Below, in pieces: positions 2,130-44,404 of a stretch of 56,803 nucleotides of DNA; the first letter of the stretch is position 1; each line of letters begins with the position of its first letter. The stretch comes from an uncultured Dehalococcoidia bacterium (lineage in GTDB: Bacteria; Chloroflexota; Dehalococcoidia; DSTF01; RBG-16-68-14). The notes beneath the pieces were generated by a model that worked only from the letters and a program-made list of their open reading frames with translations, searched no databases and was not told where the DNA came from. The translations under genes were made by a program, and so were the position numbers. The stretch covers positions 40,555 to 97,357 of the forward strand of contig CAYQLM010000002.1 of the NCBI GenBank assembly GCA_964418365.1, given 5' to 3'.

Positions 2130-3257
2130 TTGTCGCAGGCCCCCGTCCTCATCGTCTTCCTTGGTGGTATGCGCGGCAGCGCGATCGAGGACCTCCTCGG
2201 CCGCGCGCTCACGGAAGCAGCGCTCGACCTGCTGGAAGAAACGCTGCCCACCGGCGCGTTCGCGAGCGCCATTCTCGCCAGCGACAGCGATGCGCTCGTC
2301 GCGCGTCTTCCTGTCGGCGTCGTCCTCGATCGCGATGAGGACACCTTCCATTTCGGACGGCGGCTCGCAGCGCTCGTGCGCGATCGCGCGATCGAGCGGC
2401 CCGTGTACGTGGGCGCGGGCAGTGTGCCACTCCTTCGCGGCCAGGATCTCGCCGCCGTCGCGCGCCGTCTCGCCGAAGCGGACGGTCTCGTCATCGCGAA
2501 CAACTACTTCTCCGCCGATCTCGTCGCGCTCACGCCGGGCAGCGCGCTCGATCGCATCGATCTCCCGGCGAGCGATAACTTTCTCCCACGCCTTTTGCAT
2601 GATCAGGCCGGACTCGCCAGCGAGCCGCTGCCGCGCAGCAGCGCCACGCAGTTCAACATCGATTCGCCCGCTGACCTCGCGATGCTCAAGCTCGCGGGCG
2701 GCGGCGGCGCAAACCTCTCGCGCTTTCTCGATGCCTTCGAGGCCGACCTCGAGCCGTACCGCCGTCTCATGCGCGCGGTCGTCGATACGAAGGCCGAGGT
2801 ACTGGTCGCCGGCCGCGTCGGCAGCCAGGCGTGGTCATACCTCGAGCGCGAGACGGCGTGCCGCATCCGCCTCTACTCGGAAGAGCGCGGCATGCAGGCG
2901 GCCAGTCGCGACACTACCGGCGCCGCGCGATCGCTCCTCGCCTTCCACCTGCGCGAGGTCGGCAGCGCGCGCTTCTTCGCCGAGCTGGCGGAGCTCGCCG
3001 ACGTCGCCTGCATCGATACGCGGCCGTTGCTTGTGCACCTCGGCGTCCAGGCCTCGCGCGCCGATCGCTTCTGGTCGGACCTGGGCTGTCCCGACCGGAT
3101 CGAGGACGCTGTCCTGCGCGAGTTCACGCAGGCCGCGCTCGATGCGCCGCTACCCGTGATACTCGGCGGGCACTCGCTCGTCTCCGGCGGCCTCATGCTC
3201 CTCACCGAGGCCGCCTGGCGCGAGGAAGACCAGCGCCTCGCCTCGGAAAGGTCGTAG
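2130..3257 (+). CDS. Hypothetical protein (N-terminal Rossmann/nucleotidyltransferase-like strand VLIVFLGG)
   Basis: 375-aa ORF with coding-like composition and a TTG start 8 nt after the pfkB stop. No family recognised by eye. Confidence 0.5.
   Translation: MSQAPVLIVFLGGMRGSAIEDLLGRALTEAALDLLEETLPTGAFASAILASDSDALVARLPVGVVLDRDEDTFHFGRRLAALVRDRAIERPVYVGAGSVPLLRGQDLAAVARRLAEADGLVIANNYFSADLVALTPGSALDRIDLPASDNFLPRLLHDQAGLASEPLPRSSATQFNIDSPADLAMLKLAGGGGANLSRFLDAFEADLEPYRRLMRAVVDTKAEVLVAGRVGSQAWSYLERETACRIRLYSEERGMQAASRDTTGAARSLLAFHLREVGSARFFAELAELADVACIDTRPLLVHLGVQASRADRFWSDLGCPDRIEDAVLREFTQAALDAPLPVILGGHSLVSGGLMLLTEAAWREEDQRLASERS
3172..3237 (+). repeat. 66-nt segment (3' end of the 2130..3257 gene) duplicated at 11729..11795
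   Basis: cactcgctcgtctccggcggcctcatgctcctcaccgaggccgcctggcgcgaggaagaccagcgc is present at both positions. Marks the left edge of a tandem duplication unit. Confidence 0.85.
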
Positions 3258-3278
3258 GGGCGACCTTTAGGTCGCCAC
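3254..3278. repeat. REP-like hairpin GTAGGGGCGACC-ttta-GGTCGCCAC
   Basis: The same 25-mer recurs at 46567-46591 and inverted at 46618-46642. Confidence 0.7.
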
Positions 3279-3322
3279 GCGCGTTGCGTGTGTAGGAGCG
3301 GCCTCGCGGGGCTGCGGCGGAG

Positions 3323-3331
3323 TGCTATAAT
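3323..3331 (+). promoter_or_regulatory. Extended -10 (TGCTATAAT) 10 nt before the ATG; leaderless or near-leaderless start
   Basis: tgctataat-cgctccgcc-ATG, identical at 11863-11871 before the intact paralog. Confidence 0.5.
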
Positions 3332-3340
3332 CGCTCCGCC

Positions 3341-5335
3341 ATGAGCACCGAGGGAAGCGCGGCGACGACGACCATCCTCTTCACCGACTTGGTGAACTCC
3401 ACAGGGCTGCTGCAGCGCGCCGGCGACGAGCGCGCGCAGCGTATCGTACAAGGGCACCACAAGCTGCTGCAGGACGCCGTGGCGGCCAACGCCGGGCGGG
3501 CCGTGAAGTGGGAAGGCGATGGCCTCATGGCCGCCTTCTTCTCTTCGGCCGACGCCGTGCGCTGCGCGATCGCCATCCAACGGGCCGGCCGCCGTCCGAT
3601 CGCTGGTGAACGCTTAGAAGTGCGGGTCGGGCTAAACGTCGGTGAGGCGCTTCATTGGGAGGAGGACGACTACTTCGGGACGCCGGTGGTAATCGCAGAA
3701 CGGTTGTGCAAGCGGGGACAGTCGGGTCAGATTCTGTGTAGCGCGCTCGTGGCCGGCCTCCTGGCGGGTCGCCAAGCGTCCCGCTTCCGCGAGCTGGGCG
3801 AGCTGGAGCTGAAGGGAATCGCGCAGCCCGTGGCCGCCTGCGAGGTGCTCTACGAGCGCGACGAGCCTGCGGCGCTCCTTGCCCATACACCGTTCATCGG
3901 CCGCAAAGCGGAGGTCACTCGCCTGCGCGCGAAGCTGCAGGAAGCGCGCTCGGGCCGGGTTGGTCATGCTCGTCGGCGAGCCGGGGATCGGCAAGACGCG
4001 CACCGCGGACGAGTTCTGCGAACTTGCCCGTCAGGACGGCTGCGCTGTCGCCTGGGGACGCTGCTACGAGGGCGAGTGGGCGCCGCCATATGGCCCCTTC
4101 GCTGAGGTGATCGAGGAGTACGCGCGCTCCGCCGAGCCGGAGGCGCTGCGCGAGGACCTCGGGCTCGGCGCCGGGCCGGTCGCGCGGCTGGTGTCCTCTT
4201 TACGCGAGCGCCTGCCGGACATCCCGGAGCCGGTACCCCTCCAGCCCGACGAGGAGCGCTTCCGCCTGCTCGATGCCGTCTCGCAGTTCCTAATCGCCGC
4301 GTCGCAGCGCGCGCCCGTCGTCCTCGTGCTCGACGACCTGCACTGGGCGGACAAGGGAACGATCGCGATGCTGCGCCACGTGGCGCGCTTCGCCCCCCGC
4401 CACCGCATCCTGCTGCTCGGCGCCTACCGCGACGTAGAGCTCGACCGGCGGCACCCGCTGTCCGACGCGCTCGGCGTGCTCCACCGCGAGACGAACTACG
4501 AGCGCGTCGTCCTGAAGGGACTGGCCGCGCGGGAGGTGGGCGAGCTGCTCTCCCCTATGGCGGAGCACGACGTGCCGCAGGGGCTGGTCGACGCGATCAG
4601 CGCCGAGACGGACGGCAACCCCTTCTTCATCCGCGAAGTGCTGCTGCACCTGGTGGAGACCGGTGCGCTCTATCAGCGCGAGGGCCGCTGGAGAAGCGAC
4701 GCCAGGATCGAGGAGCTGGGCATACCGGAGGGGGTGCGTCAGGTCGTCGGCCGGCGCCTCTCACATCTCTCCACGAACGCGAACCGCCTGCTCACTGCTG
4801 CGTCGGCGTTCAGCGGGGCGTTCCGCTTCGATGTCGCCGCGGGCGTCGCGGGCCTCGATGAGACGGCGGCGCTCGACGCGGTGGACGAGGCGCTGGCGGC
4901 GCAACTGCTACGGCCGGCGGGCGAGCCGGATGCGTGCGACTTCACCCACGCCCTCATCCGGCACACGCTGTACAGCGAGCTGAGCCCGCCCCGCCAGGTG
5001 CGTCTGCACCGCAAGATCGCCGACGTCATGGAAGTGCGCGTCGCAACCTACACACCCGACCGGCAGGCGGCTCACGCCGCGGAGCTCGCCTACCAGTACC
5101 ATCGCAGCGCTGCCCTGCCCGGCGCCGAGCGAGGCGTCGACCATGCCATCATTGCAGCCAGCCAAGCCGAGGCTGCCTACGCCCACGATGAGACGGCCGC
5201 TTACCTGCGAATGGCGTTGGATTTGTTGCCAGGAGACGATCCGCGCCGGCCGCGCCTGCTAGCCAGGCTGGGAGTGGCACTGGCCTGGACGCTGGAGTTC
5301 GACGAAGCACTGAAGGCGGCGAGTAAGGCAGGGCT
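3341..5335 (+). pseudogene. Adenylate/guanylate cyclase - AAA(P-loop) NTPase - TPR gene, copy 1, N-terminal 2 kb (frameshifted, then interrupted)
   Basis: Collinear with 11881..15168. The reading frame switches near 3955 (ORFs 3341..4105 and 3879..5525 overlap) because 5 nt are missing relative to copy 2. Homology to copy 2 ends near 5335. Confidence 0.8.
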
Positions 5336-5535
5336 CGCTTCGCGCTGCGGGTGCCGGGTGCTCATCCCAGCCGGCTTCGGCTTACGGCCCTTCACCTACA
5401 CCCCCCTAGCCAATTTCGCGGACAGAAAAATCAGGCCAGCGGGCGGTGTGCGCCGGCCCGAGATCTCCAAAAATATCGACCCCTCCCCCGCACGGAGAGG
5501 CGGTGACACTATTGCCGGATGGTGATGGCTCGCCC

Positions 5536-5563
5536 AAGAAAAAGGCCCTCCTTCAAGAGGGCC
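5536..5563 (-). terminator. Rho-independent terminator for the DUF3303-like gene
   Basis: On the minus strand: GGCCCTC-ttgaag-GAGGGCC followed by TTTTT. Confidence 0.65.
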
Positions 5564-5687
5564 ACGGTGGGCACGAGATCCGCGCTAGGCGGAGGGCACG
5601 AAGGCCACGAAGCGGCTTCCCTTAGTCTAGCACAGCCGCCACGTGCCAGACTCCAATCGAATTCTTCGCGCTTTCGCCAGTCGGCGG

Positions 5688-5984
5688 CTACTTGATGGAG
5701 TCGCGCCAGGCGAAGGCTTTCAGGGTAACAGGCACCGACTCTGCGATGTCCACGCAGGGTTCAGAGTCGAAGTCAAGATGCGGGCCCCAAGGAGCCATTG
5801 CCTCGAGGACGACGAGAGCGGAGTCGGCCTCGACGATGGCGATGCCTCTACCGCTGCCGGTCACGTAGTGGGCCTTGAACACGAAGCCCTTCGGCGGCGT
5901 CCAATTGGTGAAAAGGTTCAAGCTCCGCTTTTCGCTCTCCTCGGTAGCGTTGTCCTTGGCCTTGTAGGTAACTGCCAGTAACAT
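5688..5984 (-). CDS. Small DUF3303-like protein
   Basis: 98 aa, MLLAVTYKAKDN...FTNWTPPKGFVFKAHYVTGSGRGIAIVEAD...LDFDSEPCVD pattern. AGGAAGAAGG RBS upstream. Confidence 0.65.
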   Translation of the reverse strand: MLLAVTYKAKDNATEESEKRSLNLFTNWTPPKGFVFKAHYVTGSGRGIAIVEADSALVVLEAMAPWGPHLDFDSEPCVDIAESVPVTLKAFAWRDSIK

Positions 5985-6093
5985 GGGTCCTTCTTCCTTT
6001 CGATGCTATTCCTTGCCGAACGCCGGATAGTCTAGCAAGCGGTGCTGCGTATGAACAGGGTGTGACCCTAACACGGAGCCACGTGTTCGACAT

Positions 6094-6215
6094 GTCAGCC
6101 TTTCGGCGGCGCCGGGTTCCTCGGCTTGCACCGTCCACACTTGATGTCCCAGTCGCGTCATCGCTTCGGCCAGCTTCCTGCGGCAGTGCCAACAGCGCGG
6201 CGCGCGCTCTGTGGC
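6094..6215 (-). pseudogene. Com-like CxxC...CxxC zinc-ribbon micro-ORF, apparently frameshifted
   Basis: Minus strand reads ..ERAPRCWHCRRKLAEAMTRL then, after a +1 shift, DIKCGRCKPRNPAPPKG-stop. Parallels the intact copy at 10347..10496. Confidence 0.4.
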
Positions 6216-6446
6216 GGCGCCATCACGATGGCGAGATGGTGTGGCCGTAGGCGCTCGGACTGCCGCACTCCAGCAACTGGCGGCAGATAGCAGAAACCGC
6301 GAGCTGGGGGAGCCAAACTCGCGGTGCCGCTGCGTTGTCGCTGTGTGGTAAGAGGTTCGACTCCAGTATCGCGCGTAGCTGTTATGAGGCTATGCCACGG
6401 TTGTCAAACATCTGTTAACCCTGAGCAGACCAGGCGGCTCCCGGTC

Positions 6447-6624
6447 TAGGGAGGATTGGGAATCGACTTCGGCTTCATATGCTGCGCGATTTCACGAGCC
6501 ACTAGCGGCCCCGATCCCAGTGGGGTTCAAATCGGACCAAACTGCATCACGAGCGCCGCGTGGTCGCGCTCGAAAGCCGCCGCCTCGGGGCCCCACTATG
6601 TGCCGATAGCGACGGCCCGGGCGC
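6447..6624 (-). repeat. Repeat R1 (~165-180 nt element, family R)
   Basis: Shares blocks with R2 and R3 (minus strand): GGAGCGCCC.., CTATCnnCACATAGTG, GCAGTTTGGTC, GCCTAGyGnCTCGTGAAATyGCGCAGCAyATGA. Confidence 0.7.
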
Positions 6625-6816
6625 CTAATGCCACCCGCCACGCCCACTGTGCGTGCCCGCGATTCCAACGCACTGCCCACAGACCGTCCCGCGGCCGCGC
6701 TTCGCTTCCTGGGAATCGAGTTCTGGATCTCTGGACGGCGCAAGTCGTGACTGCCGCAGCGTCATATGCCGCGCGATTTCACGAGCACTAGGCGACCGAA
6801 CATGCAGCCAACCCAA
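6625..6816 (-). pseudogene. Remnant of the small CxxC/RGRG ORF (paralog of 10113..10334), N-terminus replaced by repeat R2
   Basis: C-terminus ..LAPSRD...AKRGRGTVCGQCVGIAGTHSGRGGWH aligns with ..LAPACPRW...FKRGRGTVCGLCVKIAGYHRGRGGRH. Confidence 0.4.
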
Positions 6817-6923
6817 TTTCGACCAAACTGCGCTGTTAGGCCTCCCGTGCAGCCGCCCCGGTGGCCCTCCCTCTGGCCATCGCTATGGCCTGATAGTGCG
6901 AAGCGCCCCCGAAGGGGCGCTCC
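6762..6923 (-). repeat. Repeat R2 (family R), directly downstream of the 900-aa gene
   Basis: Same conserved blocks as R1/R3. Contains the perfect hairpin AGCGCCCC-cgaa-GGGGCGCT. Confidence 0.7.
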
Positions 6924-6946
6924 ACTTAGCCTCCAGAAACTGCGAA

Positions 6947-9649
6947 CTATCCGATGATGATGCAGGACGACGCCGGCCGTCCGAACTGAACGTAGTGCAC
7001 ATCGACATTTGGCGACCCGCTTCTGAGGCCGTAGCCGAACGCCGCGAACATGTTCCCGGGATCAGCTTCCGTGGGAGCTGCCTTCCGGATCGTCACGTAA
7101 TCGCCAAAGCGGTTTGTGCCAACGTTGCTGTTCGTCGTGATCCAGGCGATGAAGTCTCCCCAGAAGCCGACGACGTGGTTCTCGTAGTTGCCGCCGCCTC
7201 CGAATTCGAAGGACATGCCGACTTCGTTCGTGCAGGCGTTCGTAGAGAGAGACGGGTACGCGAATGCGTAGTCCGGGTTCCAGACCTGCACTTGCTGAAT
7301 CTTGTCGAAGTCGTCATTGCGGTCGAAGACGGCGATCTCGATGTGGGCCTGCGGGAGGTTGGTGTCCGTGCCGGCCGACCAGGCAAACCAGAGCTGGTTG
7401 CCGACGCGGGTTCCTCCGATGATCGCGTTGCCCGGGAAGGCACCGCCCCCTGTGGCGCCGCTGAAGTTCTTGCCCAACCAGTCCTGCCCGTCGGGCGTGA
7501 GCGATGTGGGGGAATTGTTCGCCCAACTCGAAATGCCCCGGTCGCGCCAGAAGTAGGTATTGGAATCCTCGCGCAGCGAGAAGATGCGCACGTTCTTGTT
7601 GTTGTTGTGACCGGCCCAGAAGACCTCGTTCCTCGTGTCATGCATGATGTGGCTGCCCCACGGTGTGCCGTTCGCCGGATCCGTGAACTCCACCGTGACG
7701 GTGCCCCCGGCCTGGAGGCCGGCCAGGGAAATACGCGCGACCTGGAAGCCGGCGTTGCAGCCGGCCGCGCAGGGGAAGCCGGCATCCCAGCTCATGTACA
7801 GGAAGTTGTTGCCAAGGGACATTTCCGGGTAGTCGAACCCTGTGCCAACCGGCTGACCGAAGAGCTGGGCCGTGAGGTTCCAATACGTCCAGGCCGTACC
7901 GTTGCTGCTAATGATGCTGGCCGGACTGGCCATCGCAAGCCGGTAGCCGCGGTTCCCCTGGATCAACCAGAAGAAGCGATCGATGCTGGGGGCGTATTGG
8001 ACGACTTGATCGCAGCAGAACCCGACCTTGTCGTTGGGGAAGATGGTGGTCGCATTGATCTGCGTGAAGTTCACGCCGTTGGTTGAAAAGGCCGCACTGG
8101 TCGTGTTCGCCGTGGCGAAGACCACGCCGCCGCCGCTGACGTCGCCGCTCGGCTCCGCGATCGTATTGAGTCCGGTCATTCCGACGCTGTTGTTGGCGTT
8201 GAAGACGATGGGCGCGGCGCCGGCAGCACCTCCCTCAGCGGAGGTGCCTCCTCCACCGCCGCCCGAGGTGTCGATGATGGTGGAGCCCGGCGGCGGGCCG
8301 CCTGGCTCGAAGGGAGCCGTCGGCACGAGGCCACGCGGCGGGTTAAGGCCCTCCTCACCCGTTGGCAGCGGCGGGAACGGAGCATCCGTGATGAAGTTGG
8401 ACGGCACCTCTATCGAGCTCAATGTGTCCGAACCAGGCGCCGCCGGCGGGACACGCACTTTGACCTCCAGCCGGAAGCAGAAGAACGTGTCGCCGGCCAA
8501 GTACCTCCCTTCAATGGTGAGCAGATAGCTCCCCAACGGTTCGAACGACCCTGCGAATTGGGCTTGCAAGGCGCCCTGCGTCTCCGAGGGAATATCGCCC
8601 AGGCTAAAGGGCAATGATGCGGGGACGACTCGCGCTCCGGTACTCAGTGCGACCTGAGTGAGCGTTACGTCCTCAGCCGAGAGAGGTCCTGGATTGAGGA
8701 TTGGGAGGGCAACCAAAAGTGTGGAGGGGTCCAAGAGATTGACGCCTGGGTACCCCGCGATCAGCATGCTACTTGACACGCAGCTCTTCGGGTTGACCGG
8801 GTCCTGGGCGGGGTGCGGTCGCTTGCACGTACTGCCGTGCCGGCCGAACACGGTCTGCAGATCCTTCGCGTCGATGTCGCCGTCGCCGAGTTTGGGCGAG
8901 CTCGGCTCGAGGTCGTAGCGGCTGTTGTAGAGGAGCTGACCTTCGTGTGAACCCCAGCGGAACGCAATCTGCTGCTGATCGATGACGTCAACGCGGCAGT
9001 CGGCGTGAATATCGCCTTCCAGATAGCGGATGGTGATCGAAGTGTCGCCGCAGGGATCGATGATCCCACCAGCATCGTTCAGCGGGATGGGGTGGCCCTG
9101 GAGGTCCGAAAGCTGGCAGTCCTGATTCAGGAGTTCGGTAAGGACACCGTTGTCCTGGCTCGCGATCAGTTTGGAATAGACGTCAGGTTGGGCGCGCACG
9201 CGCACTTTAGCGAGCGAGCCGGGCCCTCTTGGCGCGTCGGTCGGCTTACCTTTCGTAACGCAACGGAAGTTCACGGATCCCTCACTTCGAAGGGATTCAC
9301 AGCTAACCTCGGGCCGGTTGAAGAGGTCGCCGGCTGACACGTCGACGCTGACAAGCTTGGTGTCGTAACGGACTTCGAACTCGAATGAACCGATGCTCTG
9401 TGGTTCGCCCTTAGCGGTACTGTCCACAGTGCCGCGCAGCTCGACGTCGAAGTTCACTTCTTCGACGCCGCTGGCCTTGTTGTGACAAGCTTCCGTGTCT
9501 TCCGTGCACAGCCAGAGGTTCGCCAGGCGCGGAGTCTTGACAACGTGGAGCTCGCCGACTTCGTCAGGTTCTCCGGCGGATGCACCCACTGAGGCCAGTC
9601 CACCAAGAATCAGCGTGAGAGCTAATAGAGTAAGTACGCGTCGTAACAT
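6947..9649 (-). CDS. Secreted 900-aa protein: signal peptide, cohesin-like module, dockerin-like module, Gly/Pro linker, large C-terminal beta-rich domain
   Basis: MLRRVLTLLALTLILGGLASVGASA signal. IGSFEFEVRYDTKLVSVDVSAGDLF...GSLAKVRVRA (cohesin-like, about 9185-9550). GDIHADCRVDVIDQQQ...GDGDIDAKDLQTVF (dockerin-like, about 8825-9025). GGGGGTSAEGG linker. Confidence 0.8.
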   Translation of the reverse strand: MLRRVLTLLALTLILGGLASVGASAGEPDEVGELHVVKTPRLANLWLCTEDTEACHNKASGVEEVNFDVELRGTVDSTAKGEPQSIGSFEFEVRYDTKLVSVDVSAGDLFNRPEVSCESLRSEGSVNFRCVTKGKPTDAPRGPGSLAKVRVRAQPDVYSKLIASQDNGVLTELLNQDCQLSDLQGHPIPLNDAGGIIDPCGDTSITIRYLEGDIHADCRVDVIDQQQIAFRWGSHEGQLLYNSRYDLEPSSPKLGDGDIDAKDLQTVFGRHGSTCKRPHPAQDPVNPKSCVSSSMLIAGYPGVNLLDPSTLLVALPILNPGPLSAEDVTLTQVALSTGARVVPASLPFSLGDIPSETQGALQAQFAGSFEPLGSYLLTIEGRYLAGDTFFCFRLEVKVRVPPAAPGSDTLSSIEVPSNFITDAPFPPLPTGEEGLNPPRGLVPTAPFEPGGPPPGSTIIDTSGGGGGGTSAEGGAAGAAPIVFNANNSVGMTGLNTIAEPSGDVSGGGVVFATANTTSAAFSTNGVNFTQINATTIFPNDKVGFCCDQVVQYAPSIDRFFWLIQGNRGYRLAMASPASIISSNGTAWTYWNLTAQLFGQPVGTGFDYPEMSLGNNFLYMSWDAGFPCAAGCNAGFQVARISLAGLQAGGTVTVEFTDPANGTPWGSHIMHDTRNEVFWAGHNNNKNVRIFSLREDSNTYFWRDRGISSWANNSPTSLTPDGQDWLGKNFSGATGGGAFPGNAIIGGTRVGNQLWFAWSAGTDTNLPQAHIEIAVFDRNDDFDKIQQVQVWNPDYAFAYPSLSTNACTNEVGMSFEFGGGGNYENHVVGFWGDFIAWITTNSNVGTNRFGDYVTIRKAAPTEADPGNMFAAFGYGLRSGSPNVDVHYVQFGRPASSCIIIG

Positions 9650-9823
9650 GGTTCCGTCCCTCCTTGAACCTTTGGCTAGGAAGCCTCAATGAACTGCGTC
9701 AGCGACTAGATCGTGGCCCGTGTTGTCTCCATGCCTAGGCCAAGAAACGCGCCGCCGTCCGTCTGCGTCCGGACGCTCGTTCGAAGAGCGAGCCGCAACG
9801 GGAGAGTGCCACCGGACGCAGCT

Positions 9824-9851
9824 AGTCTATCACCGGGAGCTAGATTGTCAA
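9824..9851 (-). promoter_or_regulatory. Sigma70-type promoter TTGACA-16-TAGACT for the 900-aa gene
   Basis: Minus strand: TTGACAatctagctcccggtgaTAGACTagctgcgtccGGTGGCAC. Confidence 0.55.
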
Positions 9852-9948
9852 GAGGTGAATGTCGACTGAGAAGTCACCTGAGCCTGCAATCTGCGTCCAG
9901 TGGCAGGGCGATTGGCCGGCTGTTGAGGGGGCCTTTCGCCAAGCGTCT

Positions 9949-10112
9949 TAGGGCAAGGATCGAATTCGCTCTCATGTGCTGCGCAATTTCACGAGTCGCT
10001 AGGCGACCTCGACTCCCGCGCCCTCAGAACCGACCAAACTGCGGCCGCGAGACGCCGACCGGTCCGCCGCGCGGGCGTCACTATGTGTTGATAGGAACGG
10101 CCGGGGCGCTCC
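9949..10112 (-). repeat. Repeat R3 (family R), downstream of the 73-aa ORF
   Basis: Same conserved blocks as R1/R2. The variable segment forms GACGCC-N17-GGCGTC. Confidence 0.7.
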
Positions 10113-10334
10113 CTAGTGCCGTCCGCCACGCCCGCGATGGTAGCCGGCGATCTTGACGCACAGCCCGCACACGGTCCCGCGGCCGCGCTTGAACTGCGCT
10201 GCCGGCATCTCTTCGAACGTCGCCCTGTCCTTCGGCCAGCGCGGGCATGCGGGCGCGAGGTGCCAGTCGTCGCGCGCGTCGCGGCGGCGGAGGACCATTG
10301 GCGGGTTCGGCATGAGGGCGACGCTACCAGCCAC
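10113..10334 (-). CDS. Small 73-aa Cys/Arg/Gly-rich protein (CPRW...RGRGTVCGLCVKIAGYHRGRGGRH)
   Basis: GVG-type (GTG) start 9 nt after the Com-like ORF stop. C-terminal half conserved in the remnant at 6625..6816. No family recognised. Confidence 0.4.
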   Translation of the reverse strand: MAGSVALMPNPPMVLRRRDARDDWHLAPACPRWPKDRATFEEMPAAQFKRGRGTVCGLCVKIAGYHRGRGGRH

Positions 10335-10346
10335 AATCGCGATCTA

Positions 10347-10496
10347 CTAGTCACTGGCGGCACTGGCGTTGCGGGCCTTGCACCTGACGCATCGGATTAC
10401 CCAGGGCCGGGCCACCGATTCGGCCAGCTTCTTGTTGCACTTCCAGCAGCGCGGCTCGTAGTCTACCCGCAGAGGTGATTCGGTTTGCGCCGTCAT
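10347..10496 (-). CDS. 49-aa Com-like zinc-ribbon protein
   Basis: MTAQTESPLRVDYEPRCWKCNKKLAESVARPWVIRCVRCKARNASAASD. CxxCNKxL-N11-IRCxRC spacing resembles phage Mu Com. Below the 60-aa cutoff of the ORF track. Confidence 0.5.
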   Translation of the reverse strand: MTAQTESPLRVDYEPRCWKCNKKLAESVARPWVIRCVRCKARNASAASD

Positions 10497-10559
10497 CGCG
10501 CCGCAGCCCCGGCCACGGAACCAAGTTCCAGCACCAGACCTACTACGGGATGTTCCACA

Positions 10560-11705
10560 GTCGACACGGATGGTGGGTCAAGGCACGGCGCGTGGACGCT
10601 CGCCGAGCTGGGGCTGCGCTACATTGGAGACCGGCGGGATATCACCTGGGCGTCGCTGCAAGCGTATGATCTCCAGCGCCGCGGCGTTGCCGATCCCGAC
10701 CGGATTGGAATGTGGGTTGTTAGCCCCGAGGCCCACGAGGTGTGGCAGGTCGTTGAAGCTCTGCCCCCTGACCAGCGTGCAGGCTTGTGGGGCGAGCCGC
10801 CTTCGTCCAGAGACGACATCTTTACCCGCTTCGGGGCTGACCCGGTCGCACTAACGCTCCTCGCGGGTGAATACCGGCGCGGCATCCTGCTCTGGCAAGA
10901 GCAAGCGGAGCGAGCTGAACAACAAGGACAGATCGCCGGCGCCCTCGACGCCTGGGCTAACCTGGCCCGCTGCCACACCGCCCTGGGGGACTTCGCGGCA
11001 GCACGGGCGGCGTACCGGCAGGGAAGAGCGCTCGCTGCGCGGTTGCCACAAGGGTCAACTGCCCCGCTCCTGCTATGGTCTCCGAGGTACGATCGGAGGC
11101 TGGCCGTCGATGAGGGCTGGCGGGAGTTCCTGGAAGATACCCGGGCCTTCCTGGAGCGGCCGCTCGCTGAAGTCCGGGTTGGCCCCGTTCGCGCAGCCGC
11201 TGCCCTCGCAAGCGCGAGGTTGGGCCGGGCGGAGGAGGCGCTGCACTGGCTCGGCACTCTGATCGCCGGGTTTGAGCGGGGGAGGCCGTCCTGGACGGCC
11301 TACACGCAGGTCGCCTGTGACGCCGCAGCGACCCTCTGGCAACTGGAGCGAACCGACCATATCGAGGTCATCGAGCGCAACCTGCGGGAGAAGGTAATCG
11401 CTCCGGACTTCCGCTATCTGATGCGGGACGGACGCACCGCGCTGGCGCGCCTGTGCGCGCTACAGGGCCGCTACGACGAGGCGAGCCGCTGGTTCGCGGA
11501 GGCGCGCACGGTGCTCGAAGGAGACGGCGCGCGTCCGCTCCGCGCCATCGTCGACTACGACGAGGCGCTGATGTACGTCCGCCGCGCCGCGCCCGGCGAC
11601 AAGGAGCGCGCCGCGCCGCTGCTCGATGCTGCGCTGCGCCAGTTTCGCGAGATCGGCATGACAGGCTGGGTCCGCAGGGCGGAAGAGTTGGCGCAGCACT
11701 CGTAG
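10560..11705 (+). pseudogene. Cyclase-NTPase-TPR copy 1, C-terminal TPR fragment
   Basis: From ..GLRYIGDRRDITWASLQAYDL to the stop it is collinear with residues about 730-1095 of copy 2. The N-terminal ~25 aa of ORF 10485..11705 are not homologous. Confidence 0.75.
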
Positions 11706-11795: not shown

Positions 11796-11862
11796 CGCGT
11801 AATCGTGGTCTGGTATTCTCGGCGCTGGCATGGCTGGCGAGGCCAGCGGGGCCGCGGCGGAG

Positions 11863-11871
11863 TGCTATAAT
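11863..11871 (+). promoter_or_regulatory. Extended -10 TGCTATAAT, leaderless-type
   Basis: Identical to 3323-3331. ATG at 11881. Confidence 0.5.
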
Positions 11872-11880
11872 CGCTCCGCC

Positions 11881-14800
11881 ATGAGCACCGAGGGAAGCGC
11901 TACGACGACGACCATCCTCTTCACCGACTTGGTGAACTCCACAGGGCTGCTGCAGCGCGCCGGCGACGAGCGCGCGCAGCGTATCGTACAAGGGCACCAC
12001 AAGCTGCTGCAGGACGCCGTGGCGGCCAACGCCGGGCGGGCCGTGAAGTGGGAAGGCGATGGCCTCATGGCCGCCTTCTTCTCTTCGGCCGACGCCGTGC
12101 GCTGCGCGATCGCCATCCAACAGGGCGGCCGCCGTCCGATCGCTGGTGAACGCCTAGAAGTGCGGGTCGGCCTAAACGTCGGTGAGGCGCTTCATTGGGA
12201 GCAGGACGACTACTTCGGGACGCCCGTGGTAATCGCAGAACGGTTGTGCAAGCGGGGACAGTCGGGTCAGATTCTCTGTAGCGCGCTCGTGGCCGGCCTC
12301 CTGGCGGGTCGCCAAGCGTTCCGCTTCCGCGAGCTGGGCGAGCTGGAGCTCAAGGGCATCGAGGAGCCGGTCGACGCCTGCGAGGTCCTGTATGAGGAGG
12401 ACCAGCCGAGAGCGTTCCTCACCCACACGCCGTTCGTCGGGCGGGCCGAGGAGGTCGCCAGGCTCCACCAGCGACTCGCAGAGGCGCGCGCTGGCCGGGG
12501 CGGGCTGGTCATGCTCGTCGGCGAGCCGGGCATCGGCAAGACGCGGACGGCGGAAGAGTTCTGCGAGGCAGCTCGACAAGACGGCGCCGCCGTCGCCTGG
12601 GGGCGCTGCTACGAAGGCGAGTGGGCGCCCCCCTACGGCCCGTTCGTTGAAGCGATCGAGGACCACGCGCACAGCGCCGGCCCCGACCAGTTGCGTGAGG
12701 ACTTAGGGTATGGCGCCGGGCCCATCGCCCGTCTCGTGCCAGCCATCAGGGAGCGCCTGCCGGACATCCCGGAGCCCGTCGCGATTCAGAGAGACGAGGA
12801 GCGCTTCCGCCAGCTCGACGCCGCCTCGCCGTATGGCATCGCGGCGCCGCTTCAAACGGACGAGGAGCGCTTCCGCCTGCTCGACGCCGTCTCTCAGTTC
12901 TTCATCGCGGCGTCCCAGCGCGCGCCCGTCGTGCTGGTGCTGGACGACCTGCACTGGGCGGACAAGGGAACGGTGGCCATGCTCCGGCACGTTGCCCGCT
13001 TCGCTCCACGCCAGCGCATCCTGCTCCTGGGCGCGTACCGGGACGTGGAGCTCGACCGCCAGCACCCACTCGCCGAAGCCCTGGTCGGGCTGCATCGCGA
13101 GACGAACTACGAGCGCATCCTGCTCAAGGGGCTCGACGTGGGAGAGGTGAGCGAGCTGCTGAACACCATCGCGGAGCAGGACATGCCCCACGGGCTCGTC
13201 GCTGCCATCAGCCGAGAGACCGACGGGAACCCGTTCTTCATCCGCGAAGTGCTGCTGCACCTGGTGGAGACCGGTGCGCTCTATCAGCGCGAGGGCCGCT
13301 GGAGAAGCGACGCCAGGATCGAGGAGCTGGGCATACCGGAGGGGGTGCGTCAGGTCGTCGGCCGGCGCCTCTCACATCTCTCCACGAACGCGAACCGCCT
13401 GCTCACTGCTGCGTCGGCGTTCAGCGGGGCGTTCCGCTTCGATGTCGCCGCGGGCGTCGCGGGCCTCGATGAGACGGCGGCGCTCGACGCGGTGGACGAG
13501 GCGCTGGCGGCGCAACTGCTACGGCCGGCGGGCGAGCCGGATGCGTGCGACTTCACCCACGCCCTCATCCGGCACACGCTGTACAGCGAGCTGAGCCCGC
13601 CCCGCCAGGTGCGACTTCACCGCCAGATTGCAGAGACGATGGAGCAGGTGTACAGCGACCCTTCCACGGGCTCAGGACGAAGCCAGCTCATACAGCACGC
13701 GGCGGAGCTCGCCTACCAGTACCACCGCAGCTTCACCCTCCCAGGCGCGGAACGCGGCGTCGGCCACGCCATCGCCGCGGCCGACCGCGCGGAGGCGGCC
13801 TTCGCCCACGACGAGACGGTGACGTTCTTGCGCATGGCACTGGAGCTGCTGCCGGAGGAGGACGCTCGGCGTCCGCGCCTCCTCGGCCGCCAAGCACTGG
13901 CCCTCGCCTGGGCGCTCGAGTTCGACGAGGCGTTGGCGGCGGCGCGGCAGGCGGGCGACTTGATCGCAGAGGTGGAGGGTGCGGACGCCGCGGCCGACTA
14001 CCTGGCCGAAGCGGTACGCACGATGCGGATGGCTGGATCCTTGCCCGGCGCCCGGGCGCTCGCCGGGCCGGGGCTGCGCTACGCCGGCGAGCGGCGCGAC
14101 GCCACCTGGGCGTGGCTGCAAGCGTATGATCTCGGGCGCCGCCGCATCGACGATCCCGACCAGACAGGAATGTTCGTTGCTGGGCCCGAGGACCACGAGC
14201 TGTGGCGGGTCCTTGAAGAGCTACCCCCTGACCAGCGTGCAGGCTTAACCGGCCGGCCGCCTTCGTCCAGAGGCGACGTCTTGGCCCGCTTCGCGGATGA
14301 TCCGTTCCAACTGACGTTCCACGCTGGCGAATACCGCCGCGGCCTCCCGCTCTGGCAAGAGCAAGCGAAGCGAACTGAACAACAAGGACGGATCGCCGGC
14401 GCCCTCGACGCCTGGGCCAACCTCGCCCGCTGCCACACCGCCCTGGGGGCCTTTGCGGCAGCACGGGAGGCGTACCGGCAGGGAAGGGCGCTCGCTGCGC
14501 GGTTGCCACAAGGGTCAGCTGTCCCGCTCCTGCTCGCGGCTCCGAGGAGCGAATGGCGGCTGGCCTCCGATGAGGGCTGGCAGGAGCTCCTGGCAGACAC
14601 CCGGGCCTTCCTGGAGCGGCCGCCCGCTGAAGTCCCAACTGCGCTTGGCAGCTTTCGCGCAGCCGCTGCCCTCGCGAACGCCAGGTTGGGCCCGACGGAG
14701 GAGGCGCTGCACTGGCTCGGCACCCTGATCGCCGGGCTTGAGCGGGCGTCGGGCTGGTCGGGCAACTACGTAGCCATCGCCTGTGACGCCGCAGCGACCC

Positions 14801-15168
14801 TCTGGCAACTGGAGCGAACAGACCATATCGAGGTCATCGAGCGCAACCTGCGGGAAAAGGTGGTCGCCCCTGACTTTCGCCACCCGATGCGGGACGGGCG
14901 GCTGGCGTTGGCCCAGCTCTGCGCGCTCCAGGAGCGCTTCGACGAGGCGGTCGAGTGGTTCCAGAAAGCGCGCGACGTGCTGGACGAGCAGGGCGCGCGC
15001 CCGCTACGCGCGATCGTCGACTTCGACGAGGCGCTGATGTACGTCCGCCGCGCCGCGCCCGGCGACACGGAGCGCGCCGCGCCGCTGCTCGATGCGGCGG
15101 TGCGCCAGTTCCGTGAGATCGGCATGACCGGCTGGGTGCGCCGGGCGGAAACGCTCTCGCCTCCGTAG
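11881..15168 (+). CDS. Class III adenylate/guanylate cyclase domain - AAA(P-loop, STAND-like) NTPase - TPR protein (intact copy 2)
   Basis: ILFTDLVNSTGL...WEGDGLMAAF...RVGLNVGEA...GTPVVIAERL (cyclase). LVMLVGEPGIGKTR Walker A and VVLVLDDLHWAD Walker B. Long helical/TPR C-terminus. Start taken at the ATG equivalent to copy 1. Confidence 0.85.
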   Translation: MSTEGSATTTTILFTDLVNSTGLLQRAGDERAQRIVQGHHKLLQDAVAANAGRAVKWEGDGLMAAFFSSADAVRCAIAIQQGGRRPIAGERLEVRVGLNVGEALHWEQDDYFGTPVVIAERLCKRGQSGQILCSALVAGLLAGRQAFRFRELGELELKGIEEPVDACEVLYEEDQPRAFLTHTPFVGRAEEVARLHQRLAEARAGRGGLVMLVGEPGIGKTRTAEEFCEAARQDGAAVAWGRCYEGEWAPPYGPFVEAIEDHAHSAGPDQLREDLGYGAGPIARLVPAIRERLPDIPEPVAIQRDEERFRQLDAASPYGIAAPLQTDEERFRLLDAVSQFFIAASQRAPVVLVLDDLHWADKGTVAMLRHVARFAPRQRILLLGAYRDVELDRQHPLAEALVGLHRETNYERILLKGLDVGEVSELLNTIAEQDMPHGLVAAISRETDGNPFFIREVLLHLVETGALYQREGRWRSDARIEELGIPEGVRQVVGRRLSHLSTNANRLLTAASAFSGAFRFDVAAGVAGLDETAALDAVDEALAAQLLRPAGEPDACDFTHALIRHTLYSELSPPRQVRLHRQIAETMEQVYSDPSTGSGRSQLIQHAAELAYQYHRSFTLPGAERGVGHAIAAADRAEAAFAHDETVTFLRMALELLPEEDARRPRLLGRQALALAWALEFDEALAAARQAGDLIAEVEGADAAADYLAEAVRTMRMAGSLPGARALAGPGLRYAGERRDATWAWLQAYDLGRRRIDDPDQTGMFVAGPEDHELWRVLEELPPDQRAGLTGRPPSSRGDVLARFADDPFQLTFHAGEYRRGLPLWQEQAKRTEQQGRIAGALDAWANLARCHTALGAFAAAREAYRQGRALAARLPQGSAVPLLLAAPRSEWRLASDEGWQELLADTRAFLERPPAEVPTALGSFRAAAALANARLGPTEEALHWLGTLIAGLERASGWSGNYVAIACDAAATLWQLERTDHIEVIERNLREKVVAPDFRHPMRDGRLALAQLCALQERFDEAVEWFQKARDVLDEQGARPLRAIVDFDEALMYVRRAAPGDTERAAPLLDAAVRQFREIGMTGWVRRAETLSPP

Positions 15169-43375: not shown

Positions 43376-44404
43376 ATGTTGACTGATCGTCAGTCCCGCA
43401 TCCTCGAGCTGGTCGTCCGCGAGTACGTGGAGGCGGCCTCGCCCGTCGGCTCCCAGCTCCTCTGCCGCAAGTACCACTTCAACGCCTCGTCGGCCACCAT
43501 CCGCAACGAGATGGCCGACCTGGAGGACCTGGGGTATCTCACCCATCCCCACACCTCCTCCGGTCGCGTCCCGACCGAGCAGGGGTATCGCTACTACGTC
43601 AAGACGCTGATGCGCGAGGAGCAGCTCCCGTGGGAGGAGCAGCAGACCATCCGTCACCAGTTCCACCAGGTCGAGCGCGGGCAGGAGGCCTGGGTCCACC
43701 TGGCCGCCTCGGTGCTGGCGCAGGCGGCCGGCAACGCCGCCGTCGTGACCGCGCCTCGCACCGATGTCTGCCGCATGAAGCACCTGGAGCTGGTCAACCT
43801 GCACGAGCGCACGGCGCTTCTCGTGCTCGTCCTCGACCAGGGCCGTGTCGAGCAGCAGCTCCTGCTCATGGACGAGTCGAGCGACCAGGACGATCTGTCG
43901 CAGATGGCCGGCAAGCTGAACCGGCTCTTCGCCGGCTGCTCGCTCGTCGAGATCGCCGCGAAGGACGTCCAGCTCGGCGATGGGGAACGCGTGGTGATGG
44001 ACACGGTCGCCTCGATCATGCGCGCCGTCGATGAGGGCTTCGACGAAGCATCGCTCGACGGCATCCGGGAGGTGCTCCGCCAGCCCGAGTTCGCCGCCAG
44101 CGATCGCGCGCTCGGCCTGCTCGAGCTGCTGGACGAGCGCAACGTCGTGCGCGTGCTGCCGCTGCGCAGCCTGGCGCGCGATGGTGTCACGGTGATCATC
44201 GGTGCGGACAACCCGCGCCTCGCCGAAGCGGGCGAGACCATTCGCGCCTGCAGCATGATCGTCGGCACGTATGGCTCGCCGGGCGTCGCCTCGGGCGCGC
44301 TCGCCGTGCTGGGCCCGATGCGCATGCGCTACTCGCGCGCGATCCCGACCGTCCGCTACATGGCGGACGTGCTCAGCGAGCTGCTGAGCGGATATTCCGA
44401 ATAG
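43376..44404 (+). CDS. hrcA: Heat-inducible transcription repressor HrcA
   Basis: MLTDRQSRILELVVREYVEAASPVGSQ... Confidence 0.9.
   Translation: MLTDRQSRILELVVREYVEAASPVGSQLLCRKYHFNASSATIRNEMADLEDLGYLTHPHTSSGRVPTEQGYRYYVKTLMREEQLPWEEQQTIRHQFHQVERGQEAWVHLAASVLAQAAGNAAVVTAPRTDVCRMKHLELVNLHERTALLVLVLDQGRVEQQLLLMDESSDQDDLSQMAGKLNRLFAGCSLVEIAAKDVQLGDGERVVMDTVASIMRAVDEGFDEASLDGIREVLRQPEFAASDRALGLLELLDERNVVRVLPLRSLARDGVTVIIGADNPRLAEAGETIRACSMIVGTYGSPGVASGALAVLGPMRMRYSRAIPTVRYMADVLSELLSGYSE

Follow-up and report, generated by a model that had tools for sequence, protein, structure and literature searches.

We analyzed a window of 56,803 nt (the whole stretch of DNA described here, numbered from its first letter) from an uncultured Dehalococcoidia bacterium. 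Aligning paralog A of a cyclase-NTPase-TPR gene against paralog B by blastn delimited a 5.2-kb insert at 5333-10566, which splits paralog A into two parts (3167-5332 and 10567-11684). An intact paralog of the gene, encoding 1112 aa, lies at 11830-15168 and reads CGGATGGCTG at the target point. At the left insert junction ~70 nt of the target are missing, and we found no clean att copy.

The right end of the insert is a unit of ~630 nt with sharp ends (10578-9949, minus strand). Read along the minus strand, it consists of an 82-nt leader (U; 10578-10497), a gene for a 49-aa Com-like four-Cys zinc ribbon (10496-10347), a 73-aa ORF with a zinc-type motif and an Arg/Gly tail (10334-10113), and a conserved non-coding tail (R3; 10112 to ~9949) that starts directly after the 73-aa stop codon. 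Tandem in-frame stops, TAG TAG (10349-10344, minus strand), end the Com-like ORF, and a GTG follows 9 nt on in the same frame. The two ORFs, the double stop, the GTG, and the abutting tail had all been read in a preliminary description of this DNA, and we confirmed each of them on the minus strand. The two ORFs do not stand alone as a module; they form the terminal part of the insert.

The outer edge of U (CCCACCATCCGTGTCGACTGTGG) is the end of the element. This 5′ edge (CCCACCATCYGTGTC..) is the same in four settings: a comM fragment (L009 and L017), the TPR gene of the window, and an intergenic site (G003). The similarity of U to L009, L017, and G003:C50 begins at one common base despite the different flanks, and positions 10578-9961 are 78% identical to the metagenome contig L009 over 641 nt. 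No promoter-like site was found in U. In G003:C50 (~5014-5130; L032), a lone U leader and a truncated stub of Com lie between CAP/SCP-like and membrane-protein genes and form a further scar of the same element end.

The remainder of the insert carries cargo genes and partial copies of the unit, again on the minus strand. A 900-aa secreted protein with a weak Cohesin match is encoded at 9649-6947, between R3 and a decayed R copy (R2; 6898-6760, nhmmer E = 2.9e-10); the two R copies (9949-10112 and 6760-6898) thus bracket this gene in the same orientation. The promoter-like site of the gene (TTGACA-16-TAGACT; 9851-9824) lies outside R3. Sequence comparison placed the 3′ end of a second 73-aa gene (its last 26 codons, ..KRGRGTVCGQCVGIAGTHSGRGGWH*), together with a further tail copy (R1), at 6703-6453; a truncated copy with R1 had been noted at 6447-6816. 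The decayed Com-like ORF noted at 6094-6215 proved to be a frameshifted pseudogene at 6204-6105 (71% identity, E = 6e-8; PRCWHCRRKLAEAMTR / WDIKCGRCKPRN). A second cargo gene, for a 98-aa DUF3303 protein (Pfam PF11746, E = 2.2e-15), occupies 5984-5688, and a conserved leader with an intrinsic terminator at 5563-5544 (L; 5611-5371), recognized by repeat comparison and a terminator scan, lies closest to the left junction. We found no recombinase, primase, or structural gene within 5333-10566.

The 9-mer CGGATGGTG occurs near both insert ends, at 5516-5524 and 10567-10575, in the same orientation. Four sites are present against 0.8 expected, the others being at 9027-9035 and 43495-43503. A recombination core, a deletion hotspot, and an operator are all conceivable roles of the 9-mer.

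The two small genes and their junction

The translation of the 49-aa ORF includes ..PRCWKCNKKLAESVARPWVIRCVRCKARN.., and its residues C17, C20, C36, and C39 form a CxxC…CxxC arrangement with the size and spacing of the Mu Com family. These four cysteines are invariant across eight aligned members. In profile comparisons, the protein matched PHROG 6417, "translational regulator," with E = 2.2e-5, and six of eight family members match it (best E = 1.2e-7); phrog_13819, gpCom, was reached at E = 0.13 only. Three relatives carry the IMG name "phage FluMu protein Com." The likeness to Com that had been proposed from the letters alone is borne out to this extent. The Pfam family named along with it, Zn_ribbon_Com (PF10122), gave a different answer: the window protein had no match at E ≤ 1 and stayed under every Pfam cut-off, and the best relative, P0013, scored 13.4 bits against a gathering cut-off of 22.9 bits. 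Profile searches of the PDB returned nothing. By these comparisons, we classify the ribbon as Com-like at the level of PHROG 6417, short of membership in Pfam Zn_ribbon_Com.

A profile search of 1.84e9 representative proteins recovered ~130 small Com-like homologs with the consensus PRCWRCxKKLAExxxRPWxIxCxRCKAxN. Using tblastn, we also found Com-like ORFs in 14 Arthrobacter phage records (E ~3e-6), and on metagenome phage contigs such ORFs follow terL, portal, or HNH genes. Com-like zinc ribbons are thus a large family of ~130 clusters, now placed in phages of Chloroflexota and Actinobacteria. Four metagenome proteins (P0005, P0006, P0039, and P0046) are covalent tandem doublets of the ribbon.

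The 73-aa ORF opens at the GTG at 10334 and ends ..KRGRGTVCGLCVKIAGYHRGRGGRH, its stop abutting R3. An ATG at 10313 (MPNPP..), which would give 66 aa, is conserved in four of four copies and matches the start point of the distant homologs, and is therefore the likelier start; the public gene call of this ORF begins MVLRRRD. The protein has the motif W-H-x4-C-P-x-W-P…C-x2-C, followed by an Arg/Gly-rich C-terminal tail ending in His, and the W, H, C-P, and C-x2-C positions are invariant in the family alignment. The family is rare, with ~8 related clusters (P0007, P0009, P0026, P0117, and P0126 among the members), and its distant homologs are standalone proteins. P0050 holds two copies of the domain, and the C-terminus of a 177-aa ORF in the same genome (C56:7366-7500) contains a distant W-H-x4-C-P…C-x2-C domain (36% identity, E = 7e-6). 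Profile searches with this peptide had been proposed in the preliminary description. We found no match in Pfam, PHROGs, NCBIfam, PADLOC, PDB sequences, or phage genomes; what emerged instead was a rare and undescribed small-protein family with a zinc-type motif, recognizable by W-H-x4-C-P…C-x2-C plus an RG tail.

Structure prediction for the 73-aa protein reached a pLDDT of 76 in one of five AF2 models only. This best model has two short strands and a C-terminal helix starting at C-x2-C, and Foldseek returned no significant match to it in the PDB or BFVD. The spacing recalls the N-terminal domain of Ada, (aromatic)-H/C-x3-4-C-P…~25 residues…C-x2-C at the start of a helix, and viral proteins annotated as "Metal binding domain of Ada" resembled the model weakly in fold (TMq 0.53 and 0.44; Foldseek E ≥ 1.5). 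An Ada-like domain (PF02805) nevertheless gained no support from sequence: six family members had no match in Pfam at E ≤ 10, including Ada_Zn_binding PF02805, and hhalign against E. coli Ada residues 1-96 gave a probability of 0.3%.

Because the genome has 66% G+C, open frames come cheaply, and we compared substitution rates (Nei-Gojobori) among four copies of the unit: the window, C38 (same genome, 86% nucleotide identity), and the metagenome contigs L009 and L011. The dN/dS was 0.14-0.21 for the Com core and 0.11-0.26 for the 73-aa ORF, the latter with dS of 0.43-0.91. The overall range of 0.11-0.26 indicates that both ORFs are protein-coding genes under past purifying selection. Lack of conservation and of a synonymous bias had been named as what would speak against the module; we observed both conservation and bias in the two ORFs. 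Both micro-ORFs are real genes that gene callers would miss or truncate.

The junction between the two genes varies among the copies. TAG TAG is in frame in the C38 copy, as in the window; L010/L011 have TAG GAG at these positions, and L009 has TGG GAG, which yields a single 127-aa ORF (P0002). A single substitution in TAG GAG accounts for each of the other states. In L010/L011, Com has decayed and the reading frame leading to the next ATG is no longer kept, yet the 73-aa ORF is intact from that ATG (MPNPP..), which indicates that the 73-aa gene is able to stand alone. Aragorn found no CUA-anticodon tRNA in the genome, and we accordingly rejected a suppressor or pyrrolysine reading of TAG TAG. 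The missing tRNA, the lost frame, and the standalone distant homologs lead us to regard the pair as distinct genes coupled in translation, the fusion being a derived state. No Shine-Dalgarno sequence precedes the 73-aa ATG, so the protein is probably made by re-initiation after TAG TAG; in a related element (G009), the gene after Com overlaps Com by ATGA. The fusion in L009 argues that the two proteins act together. A model of the fused 127-aa protein (pLDDT 43) was not usable. A hairpin is also predicted around the 73-aa start, where only two compensatory pairs in four sequences were seen, too little covariation to claim that it hides the start codon.

The R tail, the L leader, and the parent element

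R is ~80% conserved, equal to the coding part. Its 3′ edge is an identical endpoint in four full copies, beyond which the sequences are unrelated, and it contains the invariant blocks CTATCGGCACATAGTG, GCAGTTTGGTC, and CTCGTGAAATCGCGCAG. We ruled out a coding region on either strand by the lack of 3-nt periodicity (16/14/13) and a stop in one copy; no open frame is common to all copies, and the indels are not multiples of three. We also rejected a decayed tRNA 3′ half or another known RNA, as R had no match in Rfam and the T-arm-like GGGTTCAAGTC does not pair. The predicted fold was no more stable than those of shuffled sequences (z = +0.5 and +0.4 for the two strands), and four of 40 predicted pairs showed a compensatory change, a count that comes from only four sequences and is underpowered. 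Scanning metagenomes with the best R block (nhmmer and tblastn) gave 120 loci, all of them chance matches. The suggestion of an RNA module is not upheld by the Rfam result, the fold at z = +0.5, and the four available copies. In our reading, R travels along with the 73-aa gene as its 3′ flank.

As a possible regulatory RNA, L is a stronger candidate than R. It is non-coding, with several hairpins, is ~88% identical across genera, and had no match in Rfam. Four copies are present in this genome (window 5371-5611, C17:7334-7578, C38:4752-4926, and C2:21252-21365), and copies occur in G009 and G010; L was also located at L031:2358-2467, L036:1766-1870, and L035:2267-2377. In intact relatives, L lies between the Com operon and terS or the ParB-methyltransferase. 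A role for L as a second att site is ruled out by this internal position (Com operon, L, terS), and for the same reason we do not call the 9-mer CGGATGGTG an att core.

Intact elements were found inserted in comM, in related Dehalococcoidia MAGs and in C38. They run from the junction through a primase gene (Prim-Pol or D5 type), the Com-like gene, one variable small gene coupled to it, L, and terS to the ParB-N6/N4 methyltransferase and RAMA. C38 reads L, genes of 205 and 361 aa on the other strand, a 60-nt R stub, a 74-aa gene, Com, a 585-aa Prim-Pol, and the comM 3′ part, with terS and the ParB-methyltransferase to the left of L. G009:C7 and G009:C13 carry a primase (Prim-Pol/PriCT/DUF3987 or D5_N/DUF5906), the Com-like gene, a gene for a 95-aa acidic protein with the ATGA overlap, L, (Terminase_4), the ParB-N6_N4 methyltransferase, and RAMA; R is missing from these intact elements, and in G009:C13 the 3′ part of comM lies alongside. 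In C38, G009:C7, and G009:C13, the module is thus linked to genes of phage replication and packaging, all outside the window. The Com and 73-aa genes stand, physically coupled, at the end of an early (primase) operon, ahead of L and the late/methylase genes. The slot after Com is variable, with the acidic protein in G009 and nothing in L017, so the 73-aa protein is no fixed partner.

Decayed and partial forms were also observed. On C17, a P4-type primase remnant is followed by a decayed Com copy and then R, which is kept although the 73-aa gene has been deleted; at another place on C17, L is found with two cargo genes and a further decayed copy of Com. L017, a metagenome contig, is the only place where a large serine recombinase gene adjoins U-Com, the two being separated by a 200-nt comM piece. 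There (L017:4536-6290), the last ~12 codons of the recombinase ORF extend into comM-derived sequence. comM has two breakpoints, LVGGG and NPCPC, lying 200 nt from each other, which looks like the insertion of two neighboring elements. At C38:9664-10149, comM is represented by its 3′ part alone (from ..CPCG). We did not find the 5′ part in this assembly, which is 93% complete; a prophage thus seems to have split the competence-related gene permanently. A second ParB-methyltransferase and RAMA block (C21:34184-37429) runs up to the N-terminal part of a serine recombinase, where the contig stops, and probably represents the side that is missing from one of these prophages.

Com/U DNA was found in five of 15 genomes of the family, and the 73-aa gene with R in this genome and a few metagenome contigs only. 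The genome itself has just two intact copies of the Com-73 unit. No match to the unit was found in 400 other genomes of the phylum, and a search of wider genome and metagenome collections found no Com-73 pair.

Origin and proposed function

We reasoned that a discrete insert whose end recurs at other sites, and which in relatives is linked to phage genes, is a member of a prophage-like family with comM as its insertion target. In the window, a decayed integrative element of this family survives as a rearranged stump extending from its att-side end to L. Because genes for a recombinase, a primase, or structural proteins are lacking in the insert itself, we deduce its phage origin from the relatives and call it a remnant. 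Our main reading, to which we give a probability of about 0.6, is that this is the end of a prophage element, that both small genes are real, and that the Com-like and 73-aa proteins act as post-transcriptional zinc regulators. A primase-less form comprising U, Com, the 73-aa gene, and R inserted into one paralog of the cyclase-NTPase-TPR gene, and additional partial copies and cargo genes joined it there. Everything beyond L (the packaging, methylase, and recombinase side) was then deleted, which leaves the remnant unable to move. A 5.2-kb cargo insertion without mobility genes is in this way explained as a prophage stump.

The Com-like protein may be an RNA-binding zinc ribbon of the Mu Com type. 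By analogy, it would act post-transcriptionally, both on the operon that encodes it and on L, admitting ribosomes or polymerase to the next genes. The 73-aa His/Cys3 Arg/Gly protein would be a second nucleic-acid-binding zinc module and an exchangeable partner of the Com-like protein; that the two cooperate is suggested by their fusion in one relative and by the 73-aa gene having no Shine-Dalgarno sequence of its own. A bolder version, tentative and in our judgment rather unlikely, casts the Com-like protein as an RNA switch on L that gates the terS/ParB-methyltransferase late operon, with the 73-aa protein as a new RNA-binding co-factor, exchangeable and fusable. If true, com/mom-type control of phage DNA modification would extend far outside Proteobacteria.

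We weighed four other explanations, each less well supported than the prophage-remnant reading. Serine integrases are controlled by recombination directionality factors (RDFs) that are small, diverse, and often encoded near att, and the two zinc proteins beside the junction could be RDFs, or regulators of RDFs, that control excision by the large serine recombinase of the element. U-Com at the extreme element end, adjoining the junction, fits such a role, as does the short distance to the recombinase gene in L017. However, Com-like genes also lie far from att, among the terL, portal, and head genes of lytic-looking phages; a primase gene separates junction and Com in C38 and G009; and no known RDF family was matched in Pfam or PHROG, so that we consider excision control distinctly unlikely. 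If R, working as an RNA or in cis (as the target of the Com-like or 73-aa protein, as a primase origin, or in recombination), were the real reason why the unit is conserved, this would account for the coding-like conservation of R with invariant blocks, its sharp 3′ end, and its retention in C17. Against this stand the shuffle-like fold on either strand, the Rfam result, the few compensatory pairs in four sequences, the chance matches of the best block, and the absence of R from the intact G009 elements, which together make a functional R very unlikely.

We regard it as highly improbable that the ~630-nt unit is itself a mobile or addiction cassette, moved by a recombinase in trans or maintained by toxin-antitoxin-like killing. 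The sharp, repeated boundaries at both ends, the several full or partial copies, the R copies bracketing a cargo gene, and CGGATGGTG at both insert ends at more sites than expected are consistent with such a cassette, but we found no terminal inverted repeats and no target duplications, the two intact copies in the genome compare with 0 of 400 in the rest of the phylum, and the same genes are internal operon parts in the parent elements. Neither PADLOC (defence systems) nor Pfam (toxin-antitoxin families) gave a match, the unit carries no recombinase, and the addiction module once suggested for this locus is not supported. The suggestion of a mobile module holds insofar as the unit belongs to mobile DNA; it is not a self-contained miniature, being a fragment of a larger comM-inserting prophage. 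Programmed recoding of TAG TAG into a 127-aa two-domain product, as in L009, seems barely plausible to us. Both copies in the genome (86% identical) stay in frame across the stops, and L009 has sense codons at exactly these positions. Two consecutive stops are, however, the opposite of a leaky context, and the absent tRNA, the survival of the 73-aa ORF in L010/L011 after loss of the frame, and the standalone homologs all speak against readthrough.

On the prophage-remnant reading, the window module is debris of a familiar, prophage-type sort, and its novelty is one undescribed small-protein family. If the Com analogy holds, L ahead of terS and the ParB-methyltransferase would be a new and tractable system in which phage late genes and DNA modification are controlled post-transcriptionally; if not, the locus is ordinary mobile-element debris.

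Comparison with known systems

In Wolbachia, WO prophages with a serine recombinase (sr1WO) adjoin a Mg-chelatase-related gene (PMC5447182). Similarly, the Dehalococcoidia element abuts comM fragments in C38, L009, L017, and G009:C13, with a large serine recombinase at the comM junction in L017. The two differ in that the Dehalococcoidia elements use two comM junctions, LVGGG and NPCPC, and in that the target in the window is the TPR-domain region of another NTPase gene, occupied by a remnant without a recombinase.

P2 Ogr and P4 Delta are likewise small phage four-Cys proteins ahead of late genes. Delta is a doubled Ogr, which the tandem doublets in the Com-like family recall, and this hints at a function of the ribbon as a dimer. 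The resemblance is one of organisation only, as the Com-like family has no Ogr_Delta sequence match in Pfam.

By binding the mom leader, the zinc protein Mu Com frees the start site of mom and so activates mom translation. The window protein differs in its RPW-x-I-x-C motif, in falling under the Pfam cut-off, and in being followed by genes that are not Mom, and its RNA binding is putative. It resembles Com as a phage-type four-Cys CxxC…CxxC ribbon of ~50-60 aa, encoded directly upstream of, and coupled to, the next gene. The likeness extends to the intact relatives, in which the ParB-methyltransferase stands behind a structured leader, as mom does after com.
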